A stretch of DNA of 36,520 nt from a virus (Duplodnaviria; Caudoviricetes), in IMG/VR virus record IMGVR_UViG_3300027690_000146, positions 1-36,520 of that record; one strand, 5' to 3'. The notes under the pieces were generated by a model. The model was not told the DNA's origin. It searched no databases and saw nothing but the letters and a program-made list of their open reading frames with translations. Of this stretch, positions 24,853-35,792 are shown piece by piece. The number at the start of each line of letters is the position of its first letter. The first letter of the stretch is position 1. The position numbers and the translations under genes are program-made.

Positions 24853-25536
24853 ATGGATGAGCTTTTCGTGGTTTTTGTTGTTATTCTTCTGCCTGGTATC
24901 TTTGCAGTCCTAATTACTGATTTGATCACCGTACATTCCAAATGGGGTGCCTTCGAAATTGGTTTGTATTCTCTGATTCTTGGCATCTCGGCTTATGCCT
25001 TGTTACAATTGGTCTATTGGCTTGTTGATCTCATTATCTTTATCTTTATTTCAGGATCATTAAACTGGTCTCAACTTAAAATTTGGGAGGTGGCTCTCAA
25101 CAAAGGAAAAGGTCTTCAAGGATCAGAAGTCGTTTGGGCAACTTTTCTTACTGTGCCTGTGGCCCTTGCTGCGTCTTGGTTGGTTAACTATAAAATAATA
25201 AACAAGATAACTCAATACCTCAAGCTTACAAACAAATTTGGAGATGAAAACCTATATTCATATTATTTGAATGCCAAGGAAATTGACTGGGTGTATGTGC
25301 GCGAACGAGAAGCGAACCTCACATACCAAGGAAGGATAATGGCACTTTCAGAAAATGAGAATATGCAAGAACTCGTCCTGATAGAAGTTTCAGTCTTTCG
25401 CTACGAAGATTCAGAACATCTCTATGATGTTCCGAGCCTCTATTTATCTCGATCCCTGGGATCGCTCACAATTGAAGCAATACCATTAGACCTATTGAAG
25501 GAGAAGAATGATGAGCAAGAAGAGACCATTGAATGA
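24853..25536 (+). CDS. DUF6338-like multi-pass membrane protein (moron)
   Basis: 'ILLPG' N-terminal motif, about 3 TM helices, soluble 'WVYVR...YQG.I' C-terminal domain; low GC. Confidence 0.65.
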   Translation: MDELFVVFVVILLPGIFAVLITDLITVHSKWGAFEIGLYSLILGISAYALLQLVYWLVDLIIFIFISGSLNWSQLKIWEVALNKGKGLQGSEVVWATFLTVPVALAASWLVNYKIINKITQYLKLTNKFGDENLYSYYLNAKEIDWVYVREREANLTYQGRIMALSENENMQELVLIEVSVFRYEDSEHLYDVPSLYLSRSLGSLTIEAIPLDLLKEKNDEQEETIE

Positions 25537-25669
25537 AGGGCTAACTCGGGTTGTCCAGAAAGGATATAACAAACCGACTGGTCAGTCAGGGCTTCGACCG
25601 AGCAAGCCCCCTCCAGCACCCAAGCCATCATCTGAGAGTCCAAAGAAATCTTCGGATAGTCAAAGTTGA
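25508..25669 (+). CDS. 53 aa Pro/Ser/Lys-rich peptide (not in ORF track)
   Basis: SD AAGGAG at 25498-25503; MMSKKRPLNEGLTRVVQKGYNKPTGQSGLRPSKPPPAPKPSSESPKKSSDSQS; overlaps end of upstream gene. Confidence 0.55.
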   Translation: MMSKKRPLNEGLTRVVQKGYNKPTGQSGLRPSKPPPAPKPSSESPKKSSDSQS

Positions 25670-26003
25670 AGCATTAAGTTCCTTCGGCAGATAGCTAATA
25701 GCCATGTCCCTGCCTTCAGATACCATGGGCGTGACAGCCCTCAATGATGATTTTATTCGCTCTTTCTGCGAAATCTTGCAAATCTGTGAATATTTTTTCA
25801 TAACTGAGATTGTCAGACCAACACAAATGATTCAACTAACTATGACTGTTCTGAAATTTGGTGAGAAGAATATGAATTCACAGGTTGTATCTTAAGAAAT
25901 CATAAGATTAAGTTGCAAATTGCAACACCATAGCAGTGATTCGCTCCGATAAGGAATCTGCCAATTAAGAGATTCATAACTACTGCTTGATAGGAGAACA
26001 TTG

Positions 26004-28820
26004 ATGTCTCTGCCTTCATCGGTTTTAGAATTAGTCGAACGCTTCAGCCGAAATGTAGATGTTTATAAGCGCGATGACTACAAAGAAACAAGAGTACGAG
26101 TTGAATTTATCGATCCATTTTTTGAAGCCCTCGGATGGGATGTTCGCAATGTCAAAGGATGGGCTGAACAGTATAAGGATGTTGTGCATGAGGACGCCCT
26201 CAAAGTCAAAGGAACCACTCAGGCGCCGGATTATTGCTTTCGAATCGGCGGAACCCGCAAGTTTTTCGTGGAAGTGAAAAAACCTTCGGTCGTTATTCGC
26301 GATGATGTAGGCCCGGCCTACCAGCTTCGACGTTATGCGTGGAGCGCCAAACTACCGCTTAGTGTCCTCACAGATTTTGAGGAATTGGCCATTTACGATT
26401 GTCGCTTGAAACCCCAACCTTCAGATAGAGCGGGAGTGGGCAGAATACTCTACTTCACTTTCGACCAGTATTCTGAACGGTGGTCTGAAATCGAATCAAT
26501 TCTGGCCAAGCAAGCAGTGCTCAAGGGTTCATTTGATCAGTTTGTACAAGAAACAAAAGGCAAACGAGGCACTAGTGAGGTAGACGTTGAATTTTTAAAG
26601 GAGATTGAAGGCTGGCGTGATTCTCTGGCGCGAAATATCGCATTGCGAAACAAATCTCTCAATGTACATGAGTTGAATTTCGCTGTTCAAAGAACCATAG
26701 ACCGTATTATTTTCCTACGGATGTGCGAAGATCGGGGCATTGAAAAATATGGTCGCTTGCTGGCTCTTGTAAATAATCGAGAGATACATTCTCAGCTAAA
26801 AGATCTATATCATCAGGCGGATGAAAAATATAACGCCGGTCTTTTTGATCTTCAGTCTGATCCGTTGACAGCGATTCTTCAAGTGGATGACAGGATTCTG
26901 AAACCAATACTTTTTGGATTATATTATCCTCAGTGTCCTTATGAATTCTCAGTGTTGCCAACGGAGGTTCTCGGCCAGGTATATGAACAATTCCTTGGAA
27001 AAATCATTCGCTTAACTCCATCGCACCGGGCTGTTGTTGAAGAGAAATCCGAGGTCAAGAAAGCCGGTGGTGTTTATTACACTCCAGCTTATATCGTAGG
27101 TTACATCGTCAAAGAAACAGTAGGCCGATTGATCGAAGGCAACACTCCAAAACAAATTAACCGCCTCCATATCCTTGATCCTGCTTGTGGTTCGGGCTCC
27201 TTCTTGCTTGGTGCCTATCAATTTTTATTGAATTACCACATTGATTGGTATCTAAAGAATGATCCAGGAAAATATGCCAGAGGAAAACAACCCGCGATTT
27301 ACCAAGGACCTGGTGGTGACTGGCGACTCACAACTTCTGAAAAAAAACGTATCCTCCTCAACAATATTTTTGGTGTAGATATTGATCGCCAGGCCGTTGA
27401 AGTAACTAAACTGAGCCTACTTTTAAAGGTCTTGGAAGGAGAAACTGACGAAACACTCGGTCAACAGTTAAGGCTATGGCATGAGCCCGCGCTGCCCGAT
27501 TTGGAAGATAATATAAGATGCGGCAATTCTTTGATTAGTACAGATTTTTTTTCAGAGAGATTACTCCCGGACGAATCGGATCTTCGTCTCATTAATCCTT
27601 TCAATTGGACTTCTGAATTTCCTAGTATTATGGCAACAGGAGGATTTGATGCGGTCATAGGAAATCCGCCGTATGTTAGGCCTCATAATATTCCGCAAAC
27701 AACTAAAGAATACTTATGGAAGACCTATCTTGCTTTTGTGGCTAAATCAGATCTATATTCCTGTTTTATGGAAAAAGGATTGTCTTTAACCAAGCCTGGA
27801 GGTTATTTTAGCTTTATTGTCCCGCAGTCTTGGACTTCCCTGGAGAGTTTTTCAAATATCCGTGGCCATATTATCTCAAATTCACAGGTTCTCCAGCTTA
27901 CGCAGCTCCCCTCGAAAGTCTTTACGAATGCGACGGTTGAAACATGTATTTTCCTACTTAAGGCAATTGCCAATCCCCGGTATGATCATGAAATCACTGT
28001 GGAGAAACTAGACGAACAGGGCGAGACCTTCTTTGTAAGAAAATTATCTCAACAATCTATTAAAGATGCATATCTGAATAATTTTCAATTATATAGCCAA
28101 GAATCTAGTCAGAGTATATTAAAAAAAATGCAAAATCTTGGAAGGCCGCTAAGGGATTTCATTTCCTTTGTATATGGCTTTAAAACCGCCGACGATGCGA
28201 AGTTCATTCATTCTTCCCCGATTCACGAAGAAAGCAAGCCATTTATCAGAAGCGCATCCATTCAGAGATATTGGAATGCCCCTCCAGATGAATATGTCTG
28301 GTATGTGCCAGAGATAATGAAAGCAAACAAGTCAACTGCGCGACCTGGTGAAGAAGCTCGCTTTTTAGAAAAAAAAATATTAGTTGCCAGGATGGGCAAA
28401 TATCTCGTGGCGACTTATGATAGTGGGGGATTATTCGTTAAGGATGCCATGTTGTTACTATCGGACGACAAGAAGCACAATCTTCTTTATCTATTGGGTT
28501 TAATAAACTCTCAATTGCTTAATTTTTATTACCGGGAATATTTTATAACAATTGATGTATTGAAAAATGCCTTGTTGAGCCTGCCTATTCGCCCTATTGA
28601 CTTTGGCGATCCATCGGATTCCACTAGCTACACTACGATGATCTCCCTTGTTGAACGAATGTTGTCTTTGCATCGAAAACTAGAGTCCGCGTCCATATCT
28701 CATGAAAAATCTTTCTACAAGAGGCAAATAGAAAGCGTTGATGACCACATCGACTCGCTAGTTTATAAGTTGTATGATCTGAATGAAAATGAGATAAAAA
28801 TTGTGGAAGAGAACCAATGA
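26004..28820 (+). CDS. type IIG single-chain restriction endonuclease / N6-adenine methyltransferase
   Basis: N-terminal 'PDY...FFVEVKK' PD-(D/E)xK nuclease; 'GVYYTP', 'ILDPACGSGSFL' motif I, 'GNPPY' motif IV (gamma order); TaqI-C-like target recognition domain; ATG 26004 with SD GGAG. Confidence 0.9.
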   Translation: MSLPSSVLELVERFSRNVDVYKRDDYKETRVRVEFIDPFFEALGWDVRNVKGWAEQYKDVVHEDALKVKGTTQAPDYCFRIGGTRKFFVEVKKPSVVIRDDVGPAYQLRRYAWSAKLPLSVLTDFEELAIYDCRLKPQPSDRAGVGRILYFTFDQYSERWSEIESILAKQAVLKGSFDQFVQETKGKRGTSEVDVEFLKEIEGWRDSLARNIALRNKSLNVHELNFAVQRTIDRIIFLRMCEDRGIEKYGRLLALVNNREIHSQLKDLYHQADEKYNAGLFDLQSDPLTAILQVDDRILKPILFGLYYPQCPYEFSVLPTEVLGQVYEQFLGKIIRLTPSHRAVVEEKSEVKKAGGVYYTPAYIVGYIVKETVGRLIEGNTPKQINRLHILDPACGSGSFLLGAYQFLLNYHIDWYLKNDPGKYARGKQPAIYQGPGGDWRLTTSEKKRILLNNIFGVDIDRQAVEVTKLSLLLKVLEGETDETLGQQLRLWHEPALPDLEDNIRCGNSLISTDFFSERLLPDESDLRLINPFNWTSEFPSIMATGGFDAVIGNPPYVRPHNIPQTTKEYLWKTYLAFVAKSDLYSCFMEKGLSLTKPGGYFSFIVPQSWTSLESFSNIRGHIISNSQVLQLTQLPSKVFTNATVETCIFLLKAIANPRYDHEITVEKLDEQGETFFVRKLSQQSIKDAYLNNFQLYSQESSQSILKKMQNLGRPLRDFISFVYGFKTADDAKFIHSSPIHEESKPFIRSASIQRYWNAPPDEYVWYVPEIMKANKSTARPGEEARFLEKKILVARMGKYLVATYDSGGLFVKDAMLLLSDDKKHNLLYLLGLINSQLLNFYYREYFITIDVLKNALLSLPIRPIDFGDPSDSTSYTTMISLVERMLSLHRKLESASISHEKSFYKRQIESVDDHIDSLVYKLYDLNENEIKIVEENQ

Positions 28821-28844
28821 AGAATATAGTAGCCAAGAAGTAGA

Positions 28845-29081
28845 TCACATGTTTTCATAGAATATCATTTTGATCACTTGTCTTGGTATTTGATAGTTAC
28901 GCCCGATTCGCCTTGCGGGGATTATTCCGGATTCAATCCAACGACGTATAGTGGAAGGATTGATCCCTAGTTCTTCAGCAGCCTGAGTCGTTGATAGTGG
29001 TCTCCGCCAGAGTTCCCGTGGACTCACATTCTCCAGATCATCCCAGGTGACGATTGGCTCCCGGCTGAGAGTCATGATCAT
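28845..29081 (-). CDS. excisionase-like (HTH_17/MerR-type) DNA-binding protein
   Basis: 'LSTTQAAEELGINPSTIRRWIESGIIPARRIGRNYQIP'; SD GGAGG before ATG 29081. Confidence 0.85.
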   Translation of the reverse strand: MIMTLSREPIVTWDDLENVSPRELWRRPLSTTQAAEELGINPSTIRRWIESGIIPARRIGRNYQIPRQVIKMIFYENM

Positions 29082-29301
29082 GTTCCTCCGTATATGTAGT
29101 TTCAGCACTCGCTTGGTTTCTTAACACCTTTTGTAGTAGTGGATAGAGTAAATCGCGACGTAGCTTGGCTTCAAGAGCCATTTCACGCCGCCAGCAGTCG
29201 AGGCTGGCGGTCCAGCCCATCTGTCTGCCCAGCCAGAGGCCAAGGAGGAAGGGACAAGCCATAATCCCAAAGACCTTGAGCAATTCCAACCAGTCGTTCA
29301 T
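29038..29301 (-). CDS. hypothetical membrane protein
   Basis: 87 aa, ATGA-coupled to gemA, N-terminal hydrophobic segment. Confidence 0.55.
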   Translation of the reverse strand: MNDWLELLKVFGIMACPFLLGLWLGRQMGWTASLDCWRREMALEAKLRRDLLYPLLQKVLRNQASAETTYTEEHDHDSQPGANRHLG

Positions 29302-29759
29302 CGTAATACCTCACTGGCGACCTCCCCGGCCAGCCGGGCCTTCCGCATCCTCTCAAGCGCCGCCTTGATGGGGGTGACCTTGTCCGCCGGAATCCAGCGG
29401 ACATCCCCGATTCCAAAACGCGCCTGGAGGAAATTGCGGAAGGCCGCATCCGTTGGCGTCCGCGCCACATCCCGCCAGATAGCCTCCAGCATGCGGAGCT
29501 GACGGGGCGCCGCCATCTCCCCCGGCCGGCGGCCCAGGTCATCATATTTCCGGCGGGGCGCGGCCTGGGGCCGGGTGGAGTATCTGGGCTTGAAGCCCTT
29601 CTCCTCCAGGTAGCGGAGCACCAGGGCCAGCTCCCGCTCCTCCATCTCCGCGGTGGAGCGCTTGCGGGTCAAATCCCAGAGAATGTCCCGGTAAAGGTCA
29701 TCATCCAGGCCCAGCTCCTTCTTGCCGATATGGATCAGGGCTTTATAATTCCTGGACAT
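29298..29759 (-). CDS. gemA: GemA / Mu gp16 (DUF1018) regulatory protein
   Basis: 'LIHIGKKELGLDDDLYRDIL..LT.KRS..EM...EL..VL..L...GF' and 'QLRMLEAIW'. Confidence 0.9.
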   Translation of the reverse strand: MSRNYKALIHIGKKELGLDDDLYRDILWDLTRKRSTAEMEERELALVLRYLEEKGFKPRYSTRPQAAPRRKYDDLGRRPGEMAAPRQLRMLEAIWRDVARTPTDAAFRNFLQARFGIGDVRWIPADKVTPIKAALERMRKARLAGEVASEVLR

Positions 29760-30027
29760 TTGCCACCGCCTCCTGGCCGATTTGATAGGCAAACTTCCGG
29801 TCTCCCACCTGGCGGCAGGTGACGGGGATGCCGTTGGCCCGCAATTCCGCCACCGCGGAATTGACGGCGCAAACCCGCGCCGTCATCACAATCTCCCAGG
29901 TGGTGTGTTCCTGGCCGTCAGAAAGAACCCGGAGCACCCGCTGAAGGCGGGGGCTGTTTTGCAATCGGGCAGTATGGATTTTTCCCACCGTGTCCTCCAA
30001 TGATATGGATGGCCGGCGCCGCGTCAT
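29743..30027 (-). CDS. winged-helix DNA-binding protein
   Basis: 'SPRLQRVLRVLSDGQEHTTWEIV..A.VCAVNSAVAELRANG..VTC'; frame is open further upstream so start is uncertain. Confidence 0.7.
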   Translation of the reverse strand: MTRRRPSISLEDTVGKIHTARLQNSPRLQRVLRVLSDGQEHTTWEIVMTARVCAVNSAVAELRANGIPVTCRQVGDRKFAYQIGQEAVANVQEL

Positions 30028-30200
30028 TCCGCGGTCACCAGGGCCGTCACCCTGGACAGGTCCCCGCCGGCCATAAAGGTCACAAGAAAACGGCGGAGGC
30101 ACCGGGGTCATCGGCCGCTGATTTTTCGGGAAAAGCCAGTCCTGAAATCCCATCATAGCAGCTCTCCCGGCCTCCGCCGTCAAGATTGGTTGTATTCCAC

Positions 30201-30285
30201 AATGGCTCAGCATCATCAGCCCGCGGTCGCCACTCCGCGGAGACCGGCCGCCGGCGGTGCCGTCCCGCCTTTGGCCGGTTTCGCC
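30201..30285 (-). ncRNA. type II hammerhead ribozyme with loop I / 3'-tail pseudoknot
   Basis: GGC-GAAA-CCGGCC...GGCCGG-UC-UCCGCGG-AGUGGCGA-CCGCGGG-CUGAUGA-U-GCU-GA-GCCAUU; all core nucleotides, GUC cleavage triplet, three stems, AGUGGC/GCCAUU pseudoknot. Confidence 0.88.
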
Positions 30286-30288
30286 TTT

Positions 30289-30816
30289 TTATGGTTTGGA
30301 GGACCAACTTGGCGTCTGCTTCACAATCTCCTCTCTCTTTACCTCAAAGAAGAAATCCTCACTGATTTCCCTGGTGGCGTCCACCTGGGCCAGGACGTCA
30401 TCCGGCAAATCCCTCATGGCTTCCTTGTTCACGCTCTCCACCAGCCGAATAAATGGCAACAGGTCCAGCTTTTTGAGGAGGGCCAGGGTGGTTTTCTTGA
30501 TCCTGATCTTGGTGGATTTGCGGAAGCCCAGGACACCAAAATTCAGCTCCAGGGATTTGCGGCCCTTGGGCAGGATTTCCTCCCGGTGGGCCTTGCCGAA
30601 AGCCTCCAGCGCCAGCTCCAGCTCTTTCATTCGCGCCTTCTTGGGGGCGATTTGTTCCGCCGCAAAAACCTTCACCTTGTCGATTTCAATTTCCGCTTCC
30701 GCCTGGATGGCCTCCGCCTCCAGGTTCAGAATGCCCATCTCCAGGAGGGCCTCATCCGCCGCGGCCAGGTCCGGGAGGGTTATGATGTTGTCAGGTTTCT
30801 TTCTGAGCTTCCCCAT
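30289..30816 (-). CDS. gam: Gam-like host-nuclease inhibitor (DNA end protection)
   Basis: 175 aa coiled coil then 'KSLELNFGVLGFRKS' and 'IRLVESVNKEAM...EDFFFE'. Confidence 0.9.
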   Translation of the reverse strand: MGKLRKKPDNIITLPDLAAADEALLEMGILNLEAEAIQAEAEIEIDKVKVFAAEQIAPKKARMKELELALEAFGKAHREEILPKGRKSLELNFGVLGFRKSTKIRIKKTTLALLKKLDLLPFIRLVESVNKEAMRDLPDDVLAQVDATREISEDFFFEVKREEIVKQTPSWSSKP

Positions 30817-30829
30817 TGTATCCTCCCCG

Positions 30830-31078
30830 TTATTGCGCCAGGTCCAGCATCTGGACGCGCTTGCGGAGCTGGTGCAATTCCCGCTCCATCATGTCCAGCC
30901 CCAGCAGAATCCGCCACTGATCCTCTCCGGAGCGAACCATCTCCTCCAGGGAGGAGGTCCGGGAGAGCAAATCATCAATTTGTGAATCCATCATTTTTTT
31001 CTGGCTGTCCAGGAAACCGGAGCGATTCACCACCGCCGCGGCCGCAAGGACAGACGAAGTAGGCATCCCTTTAGGCAT
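30830..31078 (-). CDS. hypothetical protein
   Basis: 82 aa with SD GGAGG in early operon. Confidence 0.6.
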   Translation of the reverse strand: MPKGMPTSSVLAAAAVVNRSGFLDSQKKMMDSQIDDLLSRTSSLEEMVRSGEDQWRILLGLDMMERELHQLRKRVQMLDLAQ

Positions 31079-31093
31079 TGTTTTCCTCCATAA

Positions 31094-31303
31094 TTACGGT
31101 TTAATCTCGTGATACATACCAACATCCAGGCGGACCAGGCCGGCCCGTCGGAGATTGTCCAGGGCCTCCTCTGCTTCCGCCTGGGTGATATTCGGGTTTC
31201 CTTTGCGAATCCGTCTGATGAGGGACTCCTTGTCCGCCGGCAGGAAACACAGAATCAATTTCTCCAATAACGTGATTTTTCCCAGGAGCACATTCATGGC
31301 CAC
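31094..31303 (-). CDS. small winged-helix-like protein
   Basis: 'ITQAEAEEALDNLRRAGLV'; SD GGAGG (ATG 31297 possible). Confidence 0.55.
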   Translation of the reverse strand: MAMNVLLGKITLLEKLILCFLPADKESLIRRIRKGNPNITQAEAEEALDNLRRAGLVRLDVGMYHEIKP

Positions 31304-31308
31304 CTCCC

Positions 31309-31632
31309 TCAGATGGACCGATTGTCACAGGTGGGACACGTCAAATAGAGCCGGAGCCGCTCAGGATTGCCGGTGGCCAGCTTTCCATAGCGTTTGGCCG
31401 CCCGGCAATGCTGGCGGCACTCCACCACCGGGATTTCACCCAGAATCGGGCAAGCAACAGATGTATTGGCGCCGTAGGTCCTCATGACCTTTTCCTCAAT
31501 CCGCTGGGTGGAGGCGCCATATTTGCCATTGATGACCAGGGAGATGGTGGTTTTGCTGACGGCCAGCTCATCCGCCACTATGCCCAGGCCCCGCTTTCCC
31601 ACTTCCGCCTTCAGCATCTCCAGCCACATCAT
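31309..31632 (-). CDS. XRE-type HTH protein with Cys-rich C-terminus
   Basis: 'VADELAVSKTTISLVINGKY', 'V.CPILGEI...C...C', 'CPTC'; typical of Mu-like early regions. Confidence 0.8.
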   Translation of the reverse strand: MMWLEMLKAEVGKRGLGIVADELAVSKTTISLVINGKYGASTQRIEEKVMRTYGANTSVACPILGEIPVVECRQHCRAAKRYGKLATGNPERLRLYLTCPTCDNRSI

Positions 31633-32045
31633 TCATCACCCCCCTCGGTGGTCCGGTTCTCTGCCAGGCGCCGGGCCTTGTGATGCTGGCGCCGGAGCTG
31701 GTCCACCACCTTCTCCGGGTCCCCCAGGTGATATTGATCCGTATTGGGATCATAGACCAGGTCCACGGTTTTGGCCACCGGGTGGAGCGGGCCAGTGTCC
31801 TTCACCAGCCGGAAAAAGACGGTCCGGCCGCGATTGCCCACCGGCACCACCCGCGCCCGCCGGATGTAACCCGTCCGGGCCAGGCTGGCGATATAATCAC
31901 GGGCATTCTTGATGCCGGCTTCAGCGGTCTCCGCAATGTCCGCCGCGGTGAATTCCCCCGGCCATTTTCTGATGACTGTCCACATCCGCTCCCGGTCACT
32001 GTTGACGGCCACCCGGTTTGAATTCATCATTACTTGATGGTCCAT
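31629..32045 (-). CDS. winged-helix protein downstream of MuB-like gene
   Basis: 'RERMW.VIR...FTAADI', 'YIASLARTGYI', 'RLVKDTGP..P...VYDPN'. Confidence 0.75.
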   Translation of the reverse strand: MDHQVMMNSNRVAVNSDRERMWTVIRKWPGEFTAADIAETAEAGIKNARDYIASLARTGYIRRARVVPVGNRGRTVFFRLVKDTGPLHPVAKTVDLVYDPNTDQYHLGDPEKVVDQLRRQHHKARRLAENRTTEGGDE

Positions 32046-32725
32046 TCCCTCACCTCCGCCATGGTCACCTTATCCTGGCCGTTGGTCCGGGCCAGGCGTT
32101 CCAGCCGTTTCAGCAGGACAATGGATTTGCGGAAATTGCCGTCCGTCTGATTCCGCACCCAGCCAATCACATCGCCTTCCAGGGCCACGGAAATGATGTC
32201 TGTGGCGGCTAGGCGGATGTCCTTCTCCGCCAGGTTCTGGAATTCCAGGACGTGGAGAAAGCGGTCACTCAGGGCGGCAAAACGGTCCAGCTTCCGGCGG
32301 ACCTGATCCATGCCCACCAGGATGATGGGGGCGCTGGTGATGTCATGCACATCCCGGATGGTCTCCAGGACATCGGGGGAAATCAGGTCCGTCTCATCAA
32401 TGATGATGAGGCGTGGTTCGGCAGTGAGCGCCGCGGTAACTTCCCGGTACATATCCCGGAAGGCGCGGGCCGGGGCAAGCATCAGCTCCACACACATCTC
32501 CTCCATGAGCCAGGTGGGAGTCCACTTTCGTTTGGCCCGGAGATAGACACTTTTATTGCTGGTCCGGGCCGCATACCACAGGGCGGTCCGGGTTTTCCCC
32601 AGGCCCCGCTTGCCGTACACCAGGCCCATCCCCGGCACACCGGCGGTGACCTCCATCAGCTCCCTGGCAATTCCGGCAAAGTTTTGGACGTTTTGGGTTT
32701 TGATAAAAACAGAATTCAGCGCCAT
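32030..32725 (-). CDS. MuB-like AAA+ transposition ATPase
   Basis: Walker A GKRGLGKT, Walker B IIIDE, 'PIILVGM'; follows transposase. Confidence 0.92.
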   Translation of the reverse strand: MALNSVFIKTQNVQNFAGIARELMEVTAGVPGMGLVYGKRGLGKTRTALWYAARTSNKSVYLRAKRKWTPTWLMEEMCVELMLAPARAFRDMYREVTAALTAEPRLIIIDETDLISPDVLETIRDVHDITSAPIILVGMDQVRRKLDRFAALSDRFLHVLEFQNLAEKDIRLAATDIISVALEGDVIGWVRNQTDGNFRKSIVLLKRLERLARTNGQDKVTMAEVREWTIK

Positions 32726-35568: not shown

Positions 35569-35597
35569 AATTTAAATGAATATTGTGCTTGTGTCAA
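35569..35597 (-). promoter_or_regulatory. early promoter (Pe-like)
   Basis: TTGACA-17 bp-TAAATT upstream of the Ner-like gene. Confidence 0.75.
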
Positions 35598-35665: not shown

Positions 35666-35792
35666 GGTTCCCACTTTCAATATTGTAAATTGCCATTAAT
35701 GGAAGCATATATGGTTTAATTTGAATAAGATGCGCGAAGTGAGAACCAGCGAAGAAAGTTCCCACTTTAGTTCCCACTTTGGTTCCCACTTT
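35666..35792. repeat. array of RGTTCCCACTTT 12-mers (operator / transposition enhancer-like)
   Basis: Copies at 35666-35677, tandem triplet 35757-35792, and an inverted variant GAAGTGAGAACC at 35736-35747. Confidence 0.8.

Follow-up and report, generated by a model that had tools for sequence, protein, structure and literature searches.

Type II hammerhead ribozymes carrying a pseudoknot, analysed by mutagenesis, were reported by Perreault et al. (2011; PMC3088659), together with their clusters in prophages, the cleavage of polycistronic RNA and a hypothesis of RNA processing. Hammerheads from such prophage clusters cleaved 2-kb polycistronic RNAs both in vitro and in E. coli; in another type II hammerhead, adding or removing bases around the pseudoknot lowered the rates by orders of magnitude (PMC3088659). 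In cells of Desulfovibrio vulgaris, three type II hammerheads near phage genes were found to cut (PMC8782182). According to later summaries of Roth 2014 and Weinberg 2015, bacterial hammerhead and twister ribozymes are associated most strongly with Mu-like phage genes, for an unknown reason, and other folded RNAs that do not cleave were found in the same Mu-like regions (PMC10085705, PMC6765202). A 2019 review raised, almost as the earlier note later worded it, the idea that the parts of such an mRNA differ in stability or translation (PMC6765202), and polycistron processing that would uncouple the two stands as a published hypothesis. No effect of a phage hammerhead on downstream expression is shown in the parts of PMC3088659, PMC8782182, PMC10085705 and PMC6765202 covered here, and the role of hammerheads for phages is still called an open question (PMC6765202, PMC10085705). 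The literature thus already covers type II hammerheads of prophages and their pseudoknot, their association with Mu-like genes, cleavage in Desulfovibrio cells and the proposal that polycistrons are processed, and the earlier note on the DNA studied here, made from its sequence, was right that pseudoknotted type II hammerheads of phages are in print.

A type II hammerhead ribozyme in the early operon of a Mu-like prophage

The DNA analysed here (the window, 36,520 nucleotides) is a provirus record estimated to be 73% complete. By its gene content the phage is a Mu-like transposable prophage: DDE transposase A, AAA ATPase B, Gam, GemA, a Mu-type portal and gpF all scored over the Pfam cut-off and lie in Mu order. 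The early genes run in the order repressor, small HTH gene, A, B, four small genes, gam, a small probable winged-helix gene and gemA, followed by an 87-aa gene and an HTH_17 gene, with the portal, gpF and tail genes next. The best named relatives of the B protein come from a Desulfovibrio sp. and a deltaproteobacterium (42-43% identity), which weakly suggests a Desulfobacterota-type host. Repeated AAAGTGGGAAC-type words at 35758-35788 and 35667-35675, between the early promoter candidate and the repressor start, are likely operator sites. AT-rich cargo on the opposite strand separates the early and late regions; it encodes a 939-aa type IIG restriction-modification enzyme (26001-28820, + strand; PADLOC E 9e-201) and a membrane-type protein of 227 aa that weakly matches DUF6338 (24853-25669, + strand). 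No RNA dataset containing the window DNA was listed among the public runs.

The earlier note had placed a complete type II hammerhead on the sense (minus) strand, 3 nt past the gam stop codon, and had proposed a search with the Rfam type II model as a check. When the whole window was searched with Rfam cmscan, RF02276 (Hammerhead_II) matched at 30286-30202 on the minus strand with 45.7 bits against a cut-off of 37 (E 2e-6), over the full model (positions 1-66). This was the only match of any Rfam family at gathering score in the window and a single copy in the whole record, and no match was found in 14 control genomes. Similarly, a sequence-only hammerhead descriptor occurred once in the window, against a mean of 0.02 in 100 shuffles. 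Each helix and core strand was then located by script, and every stem, core strand, the extra U, the pseudoknot and the cut site fell exactly where the note had put them (Table 1). Three A separate the end of the gam stop at 30289 from stem II. The core fits the consensus of CUGANGA, GAAA and NUH with the A15.1-U16.1 pair; stems I (7 bp) and III (7 bp plus 5) are closed by loops, while stem II (3 bp) is open, and loop I can form 6 pairs with the tail behind stem II, a duplex of about -6.3 kcal/mol. The consensus spacing, in which G10.1 directly follows A9, is interrupted by U30212. These results identify the element as a true type II hammerhead, a further member of the published family in its best-known setting.

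Table 1. Features of the early operon and of the ribozyme locus, in window coordinates
Feature	Position	Strand	Basis or remark
Sigma-70-like promoter candidate (10/12), upstream of first early gene	35569..35597	-	consensus scan only
Mu-type transposase A	34880-32742	-	PF02914, PF09299
AAA ATPase B	32725-32030	-	PF13401
gam (Mu Gam-like DNA end protection), 175 aa	30289..30816	-	PF07352 E 1.2e-26; phrog_491
Type II hammerhead ribozyme with loop I / 3' tail pseudoknot	30201..30286	-	Rfam, element coordinates, homologs, covariation
Stem II 5' arm GGC	30285-30283	-	script-located
GAAA core	30282-30279	-	script-located
Stem III CCGGCC / GGCCGG	30278-30273 / 30249-30244	-	plus A30279-U30243 pair
Stem III extension	30269-30265 / 30257-30253	-	script-located
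GUC	30244-30242	-	script-located
Predicted cleavage site	between C30242 and U30241	-	directly after GUC
Stem I	30241-30235 / 30226-30220	-	script-located
Pseudoknot AGUGGC / GCCAUU	30234-30229 / 30206-30201	-	script-located
CUGAUGA	30219-30213	-	script-located
Extra U between A9 and G10.1	30212	-	script-located
Stem II 3' arm GCU	30211-30209	-	script-located
Element A: predicted long hairpin, 12-bp closing stem, internal loops, U-tract end	30088..30182	-	fold z -2.95
Terminator-like site in element A	30104-30091	-	consensus scan; only minus-strand one from early promoter candidate to operon end
Element B: predicted three-way junction, 10-bp closing stem, two hairpins	30008..30074	-	fold z -3.5
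81-aa small protein, probably winged helix; GTG start behind GGAGGA	29743..29988	-	phrog_35777 E 3e-17; 36 homologs
gemA	29298..29759	-	PF06252 E 1.8e-21
HTH_17 / MerR-type helix-turn-helix gene, last of early operon	28845..29081	-	PF12728 E 2.1e-12

Structural conservation at homologous loci and covariation in related phages had been named as further tests, and both were found, the former in the three close relatives L004-L006 and other copies. Over 16 copies, 96.9% of the cells of stem I were paired, with two-sided changes in 7 of 8 pairs; the covariation score was reached by none of 500 shuffles, and slid registers were 24-59% paired (at most 58.6%). The pseudoknot core is nearly invariant among copies, so its pairs vary too little for covariation to prove it, and the pseudoknot is supported instead by its presence in the sequence and by the published mutagenesis. 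The folding energy of the ribozyme against shuffles (z -2.2 and z -1.4) is by itself weak evidence, and it is the covariance model and the homologs that support the ribozyme. In the pseudoknot-free minimum-energy fold, the 5' arm of stem II pairs with a pseudoknot strand, 3.9 kcal/mol below the active nested fold, a gap that is not unusual because the same gap ranges from 0 to 8 among 27 canonical copies.

The RF02276 model scores U30212 as a one-base insertion, and no base stands between A9 and G10.1 in any of 32 other copies (a count without the sub-threshold matches L299 and L301 and the pattern-only match L351), confirming it as a core variant private to the window copy. L301 was rejected as a second insertion copy: a U follows its CUGAUGA, but the match lies inside a reading frame and its stem III is unpaired by eye. 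L299 (1501-1557), a type II match of 34.7 bits that directly follows a stop codon and precedes a ribosome site, retains the pseudoknot signature and reads CUUAUGA instead of CUGAUGA, a possible core variant. The extra U is not an assembly slip, because a contig from a second assembly of the sole public run with this DNA shows no difference over 29814-32500; that run may be the window's own source and is therefore no independent sample. De la Pena and Flores reportedly described in 2001 an extra viroid hammerhead base between A9 and G10.1, and a U there is said to speed cleavage. Given that a viroid hammerhead with an extra core base suffers a moderate rate loss only (PMC3376415), we treated the extra U as a variant and not as a ground for exclusion. 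A literature search for an A9/G10.1 insertion or an 'extra U' in type II hammerheads gave no match, the type II alignment of the 2011 supplement lying outside that search.

The private insertion, together with the G-U pair at the end of stem II and the competing nested fold, might also mean that the window copy has lost some or all of its activity and is the decaying remnant of an active ribozyme. We regard this as unlikely, since the pseudoknot has 6 bp here versus 4 bp in the closest relatives, about 14% divergence has left stems I and III intact, and the extra viroid base lowers the rate only moderately.

The ribozyme slot in related prophages

To place the ribozyme among relatives, an alignment of the winged-helix protein and its 36 homologs served as the query, and the best 80 loci were taken from each of three collections. 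Descriptor script and Rfam identified type II hammerheads upstream of the winged-helix gene in L004, L005, L006, L025, L115, L117, L208 and L224, the Rfam scores of L004 and L006 lying just under the cut-off; the record of L036 carries one elsewhere (L249). L004-L006 share 85-87% identity with the window over the ribozyme, while the DNA 3' of it is unrelated. Because L168-L171 duplicate the window and L004-L006, and run X1 includes upstream sequence of the relatives, the habitats are not independent. The motif is optional, being present in 5 of 50 viral records picked via the neighbouring gene and in none of the 9 records with a completeness of 90% or more. Around two gam homologs of 39% identity, Rfam gave no match within 3 kb.

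A search not tied to the winged-helix gene gave a match in 7 of 150 Desulfobacterota genomes. A loose pattern matched in 84 of 401 genomes, mostly by chance, and of 15 paired-looking regions picked from these by eye, 14 yielded a total of 16 further copies. Among the 23 copies of both genome-wide searches (not counting L115's copy and two matches below threshold), 11 had Gam or DUF3164 upstream and/or GemA downstream within 1-3 kb, never in the reverse order; the other 12 had no Mu marker within that distance, and some of them adjoin CI-type repressor, SSB, methylase or Lar genes. Over 33 copies, the gene directly upstream was gam in four (the window, L004, L300 and L304), and the commonest neighbour in this position was an HU-like gene (about 10 copies, six Pfam-confirmed and the rest by eye). 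Taken together, these results show that the slot is conserved in Mu-like Desulfobacterota prophages, where a single type II hammerhead recurs between the Gam/DUF3164/HU and GemA blocks. This ordered slot, not stated in the parts of PMC10085705 and PMC6765202 covered here, is what the present analysis adds; associations with gam and with gemA may already be listed in the supplements of Roth 2014 and Weinberg 2015.

The earlier note had proposed that cleavage splits the early mRNA into a transposition part (A, B, gam) and a regulatory part. The broad boundary holds, as the ribozyme lies after Gam/DUF3164 and before GemA wherever Mu markers were found, but the division is too tidy: two of the three closest relatives (L005 and L006) have an extra gene, of 150 aa, between gam and the ribozyme, a D12 adenine methylase directly follows the ribozyme in L006, the gene directly upstream is most often HU, and some of the copies have no nearby Mu marker.

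In L005 (500-600 and 1030-1125) and L006 (725-822 and 1230-1322), the accessory gene is flanked by a direct repeat, about 13-17 nt long and derived from the 3' end of gam; the old gam tail is still joined to the ribozyme and gam has a new tail, so that the accessory gene looks like an insertion into the end of gam. Two type II hammerheads (L346 and L347, genome G229) lie about 1 kb apart behind an HU gene and flank a Lar-like gene and an adenine methylase, a layout present twice in that genome. Downstream of their early operons, related Mu-like phages have sRNA-Xcc1, isrK and C4 RNAs (L025:3688-3774 and L224:4934-5125), none of which scored at gathering level in the window.

GAAA begins at most 11 nt from the upstream stop codon in 22 of the 33 copies. 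Such spacing could let upstream translation gate cleavage: a ribosome terminating on gam would mask GAAA and the stem II arm, and it would open a helix that joins the ribozyme's tail to the final gam codons. In predicted folds of the window copy, the gam stop region does pair with 30202-30197, overlapping two pseudoknot pairs. However, the distance to any stop is larger in the remaining 11 copies (52 nt in L005 and L006), the copies do not share the stop-to-tail helix by sequence, and tight spacing is expected anyway in compact phage operons. We therefore consider such gating very unlikely.

Predicted folded RNA downstream of the ribozyme

Most relatives have a ribosome site and a start codon 15-40 nt past the core, whereas in the window the next convincing start is 225 nt past the ribozyme, and the gap contains about 200 nt of predicted folded RNA with a terminator-like U-tract. 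That start is the GTG of the winged-helix gene, for which Pfam HTH_39 was reached only by a homolog (P0026). An in-frame ATG at 30156 would lengthen the 81-aa protein by 56 residues that occur in no homolog, and because the homologs begin at the GTG-equivalent position, this 137-aa form was rejected, as was an ORF of 157 aa whose start lies within the ribozyme core. In all four contexts that were folded, cut or uncut, most of the ribosome site and GTG (29998-29986) is predicted to be paired.

The folded stretch was divided into elements A and B, both of them single-sequence predictions. As stable a fold was reached by 2 of 300 shuffles for A and by none of 300 for B, and when 55 windows of matching size were tiled across the operon, the best z was -3.0 at each size; the z-scores of both elements are inflated, because their borders were chosen after the fold had been seen. 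In Rfam 15, searched at E up to 10 over 28500-31500 and 29980-30200, no family came near its cut-off. Accordingly, a second ribozyme or known RNA behind the hammerhead was rejected, and so was element B as a C4 antisense RNA (RF01695), which reached 14 bits versus 45 (E 3.7) through its closing stem only. For antisense pairing of A or B with the rest of the operon, the longest matches were GC-rich words of 10-11 nt, with no convincing target.

An alternative function of the ribozyme would be to make the 5' end of a small RNA, with transcription stopping near 30085 at the U-tract of A and leaving a 5'-hydroxyl RNA of about 155 nt; the block from the winged-helix gene to gemA would then need read-through or element B. 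The terminator-like site in A, the only minus-strand one inside the operon, fits this proposal, as do the better-than-shuffled folds of A and B (z -2.95 and -3.5, inflated as noted) and the lack of a convincing ribosome site after the ribozyme, unlike most relatives. However, the local 5-bp terminator hairpin has a probability of 0.00 once the long stem forms, and a 70-aa gene occupies the position of A and B in the three closest relatives. Moreover, homologs of A or B were not found by nhmmer over 163, 247, 304 and a further 45 loci, blastn against phage and plasmid collections gave short chance matches only, and BLAST in 401 Desulfobacterota genomes gave E 0.001 or worse. Models R1 and R2, each built from one sequence and hence so weak that homologs are 'not found' rather than 'absent', returned over 150 genomes one match each, a plain terminator-like hairpin (L305) and an ordinary-looking stretch (L306). 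A further 98 sources, 16 loci and 10 loci held nothing convincing, and five pattern scans of viral contigs gave chance matches or no A/B homolog among the matches listed. On this evidence a small RNA of this kind is quite unlikely.

A three-way-junction RNA in L254 (1496-1581), intergenic and without an Rfam match, on an integrative element that also carries an int-alpA RNA, shares B's closing stem and, below significance, several words with A. It was rejected as unproven (E 0.027 with R2 and 1.1 with R1), and its likeness was discounted because L254 had been selected by that very stem.

More broadly, the hammerhead could be the front of a self-processing RNA cassette, comprising the RNA of about 155 nt, A and B as uncatalogued regulatory RNAs or as a new ribozyme class (new classes have come from this gene neighbourhood before) gating the gemA block, and a cut timed by ribosomes that finish gam, a combination that we hold to be rather improbable. 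Elements A and B would matter given homologs or transcript ends.

Proposed processing of the early transcript and comparison with known hammerheads

We favour, with a probability of roughly 0.6, the reading that the ribozyme cuts the early transcript between C30242 and U30241 as a constitutive mRNA-processing site, after which the two blocks would be independent. By analogy with tested family members, self-cleavage 47 nt past the gam stop would leave an upstream piece with a 2',3'-cyclic phosphate end behind the GC-rich stem III hairpin, and a downstream piece whose 5'-hydroxyl end is capped by stem I and the pseudoknot. Since both new ends would be structured and chemically unusual, we hypothesize that the A, B and gam block and the block of accessory genes, gemA and the activator decay independently. 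The two pieces would likewise be translated independently, and accessory genes gained or lost at this hotspot may therefore leave the dosage of A, B, gam and of the gemA block undisturbed. A 5'-hydroxyl end is protective against 5'-end-dependent RNase E and exposed to RNase J. The effect on downstream stability would thus depend on the nucleases of the host. Against constitutive processing stands the finding that most related phages are without the motif (5 of 50 related viral records carry it), and so does the extra U, present in none of 32 other copies.

Compared with known systems, the window copy resembles the RF02276 type II hammerheads (PMC3088659, as far as that paper is covered here) in the open stem II permutation, the CUGANGA/GAAA/GUC core, the short stem II, the pseudoknot between loop I and the 3' tail, and a site between phage genes for which polycistron processing was proposed. 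It differs from them in the extra U between A9 and G10.1, in the long two-part stem III, in being single with no cluster, and in the non-coding folded RNA of about 200 nt that replaces the ribosome site. Like the Desulfovibrio vulgaris trio (Olzog et al. 2021, PMC8782182), it is of the same type and adjoins phage-like and DNA-binding genes; that trio was shown to cut in cells, and cutting by the window copy is predicted. With the Mu-associated self-cleaving ribozymes (PMC10085705, PMC6765202), it shares the position next to Mu-like phage genes. The plus-strand hammerhead of chrysanthemum chlorotic mottle viroid (PMC3376415) also carries one extra core base that still allows cleavage there, but this is a replication ribozyme, held by loop-loop contacts and not by a pseudoknot, and its extra base is an A instead of a U.
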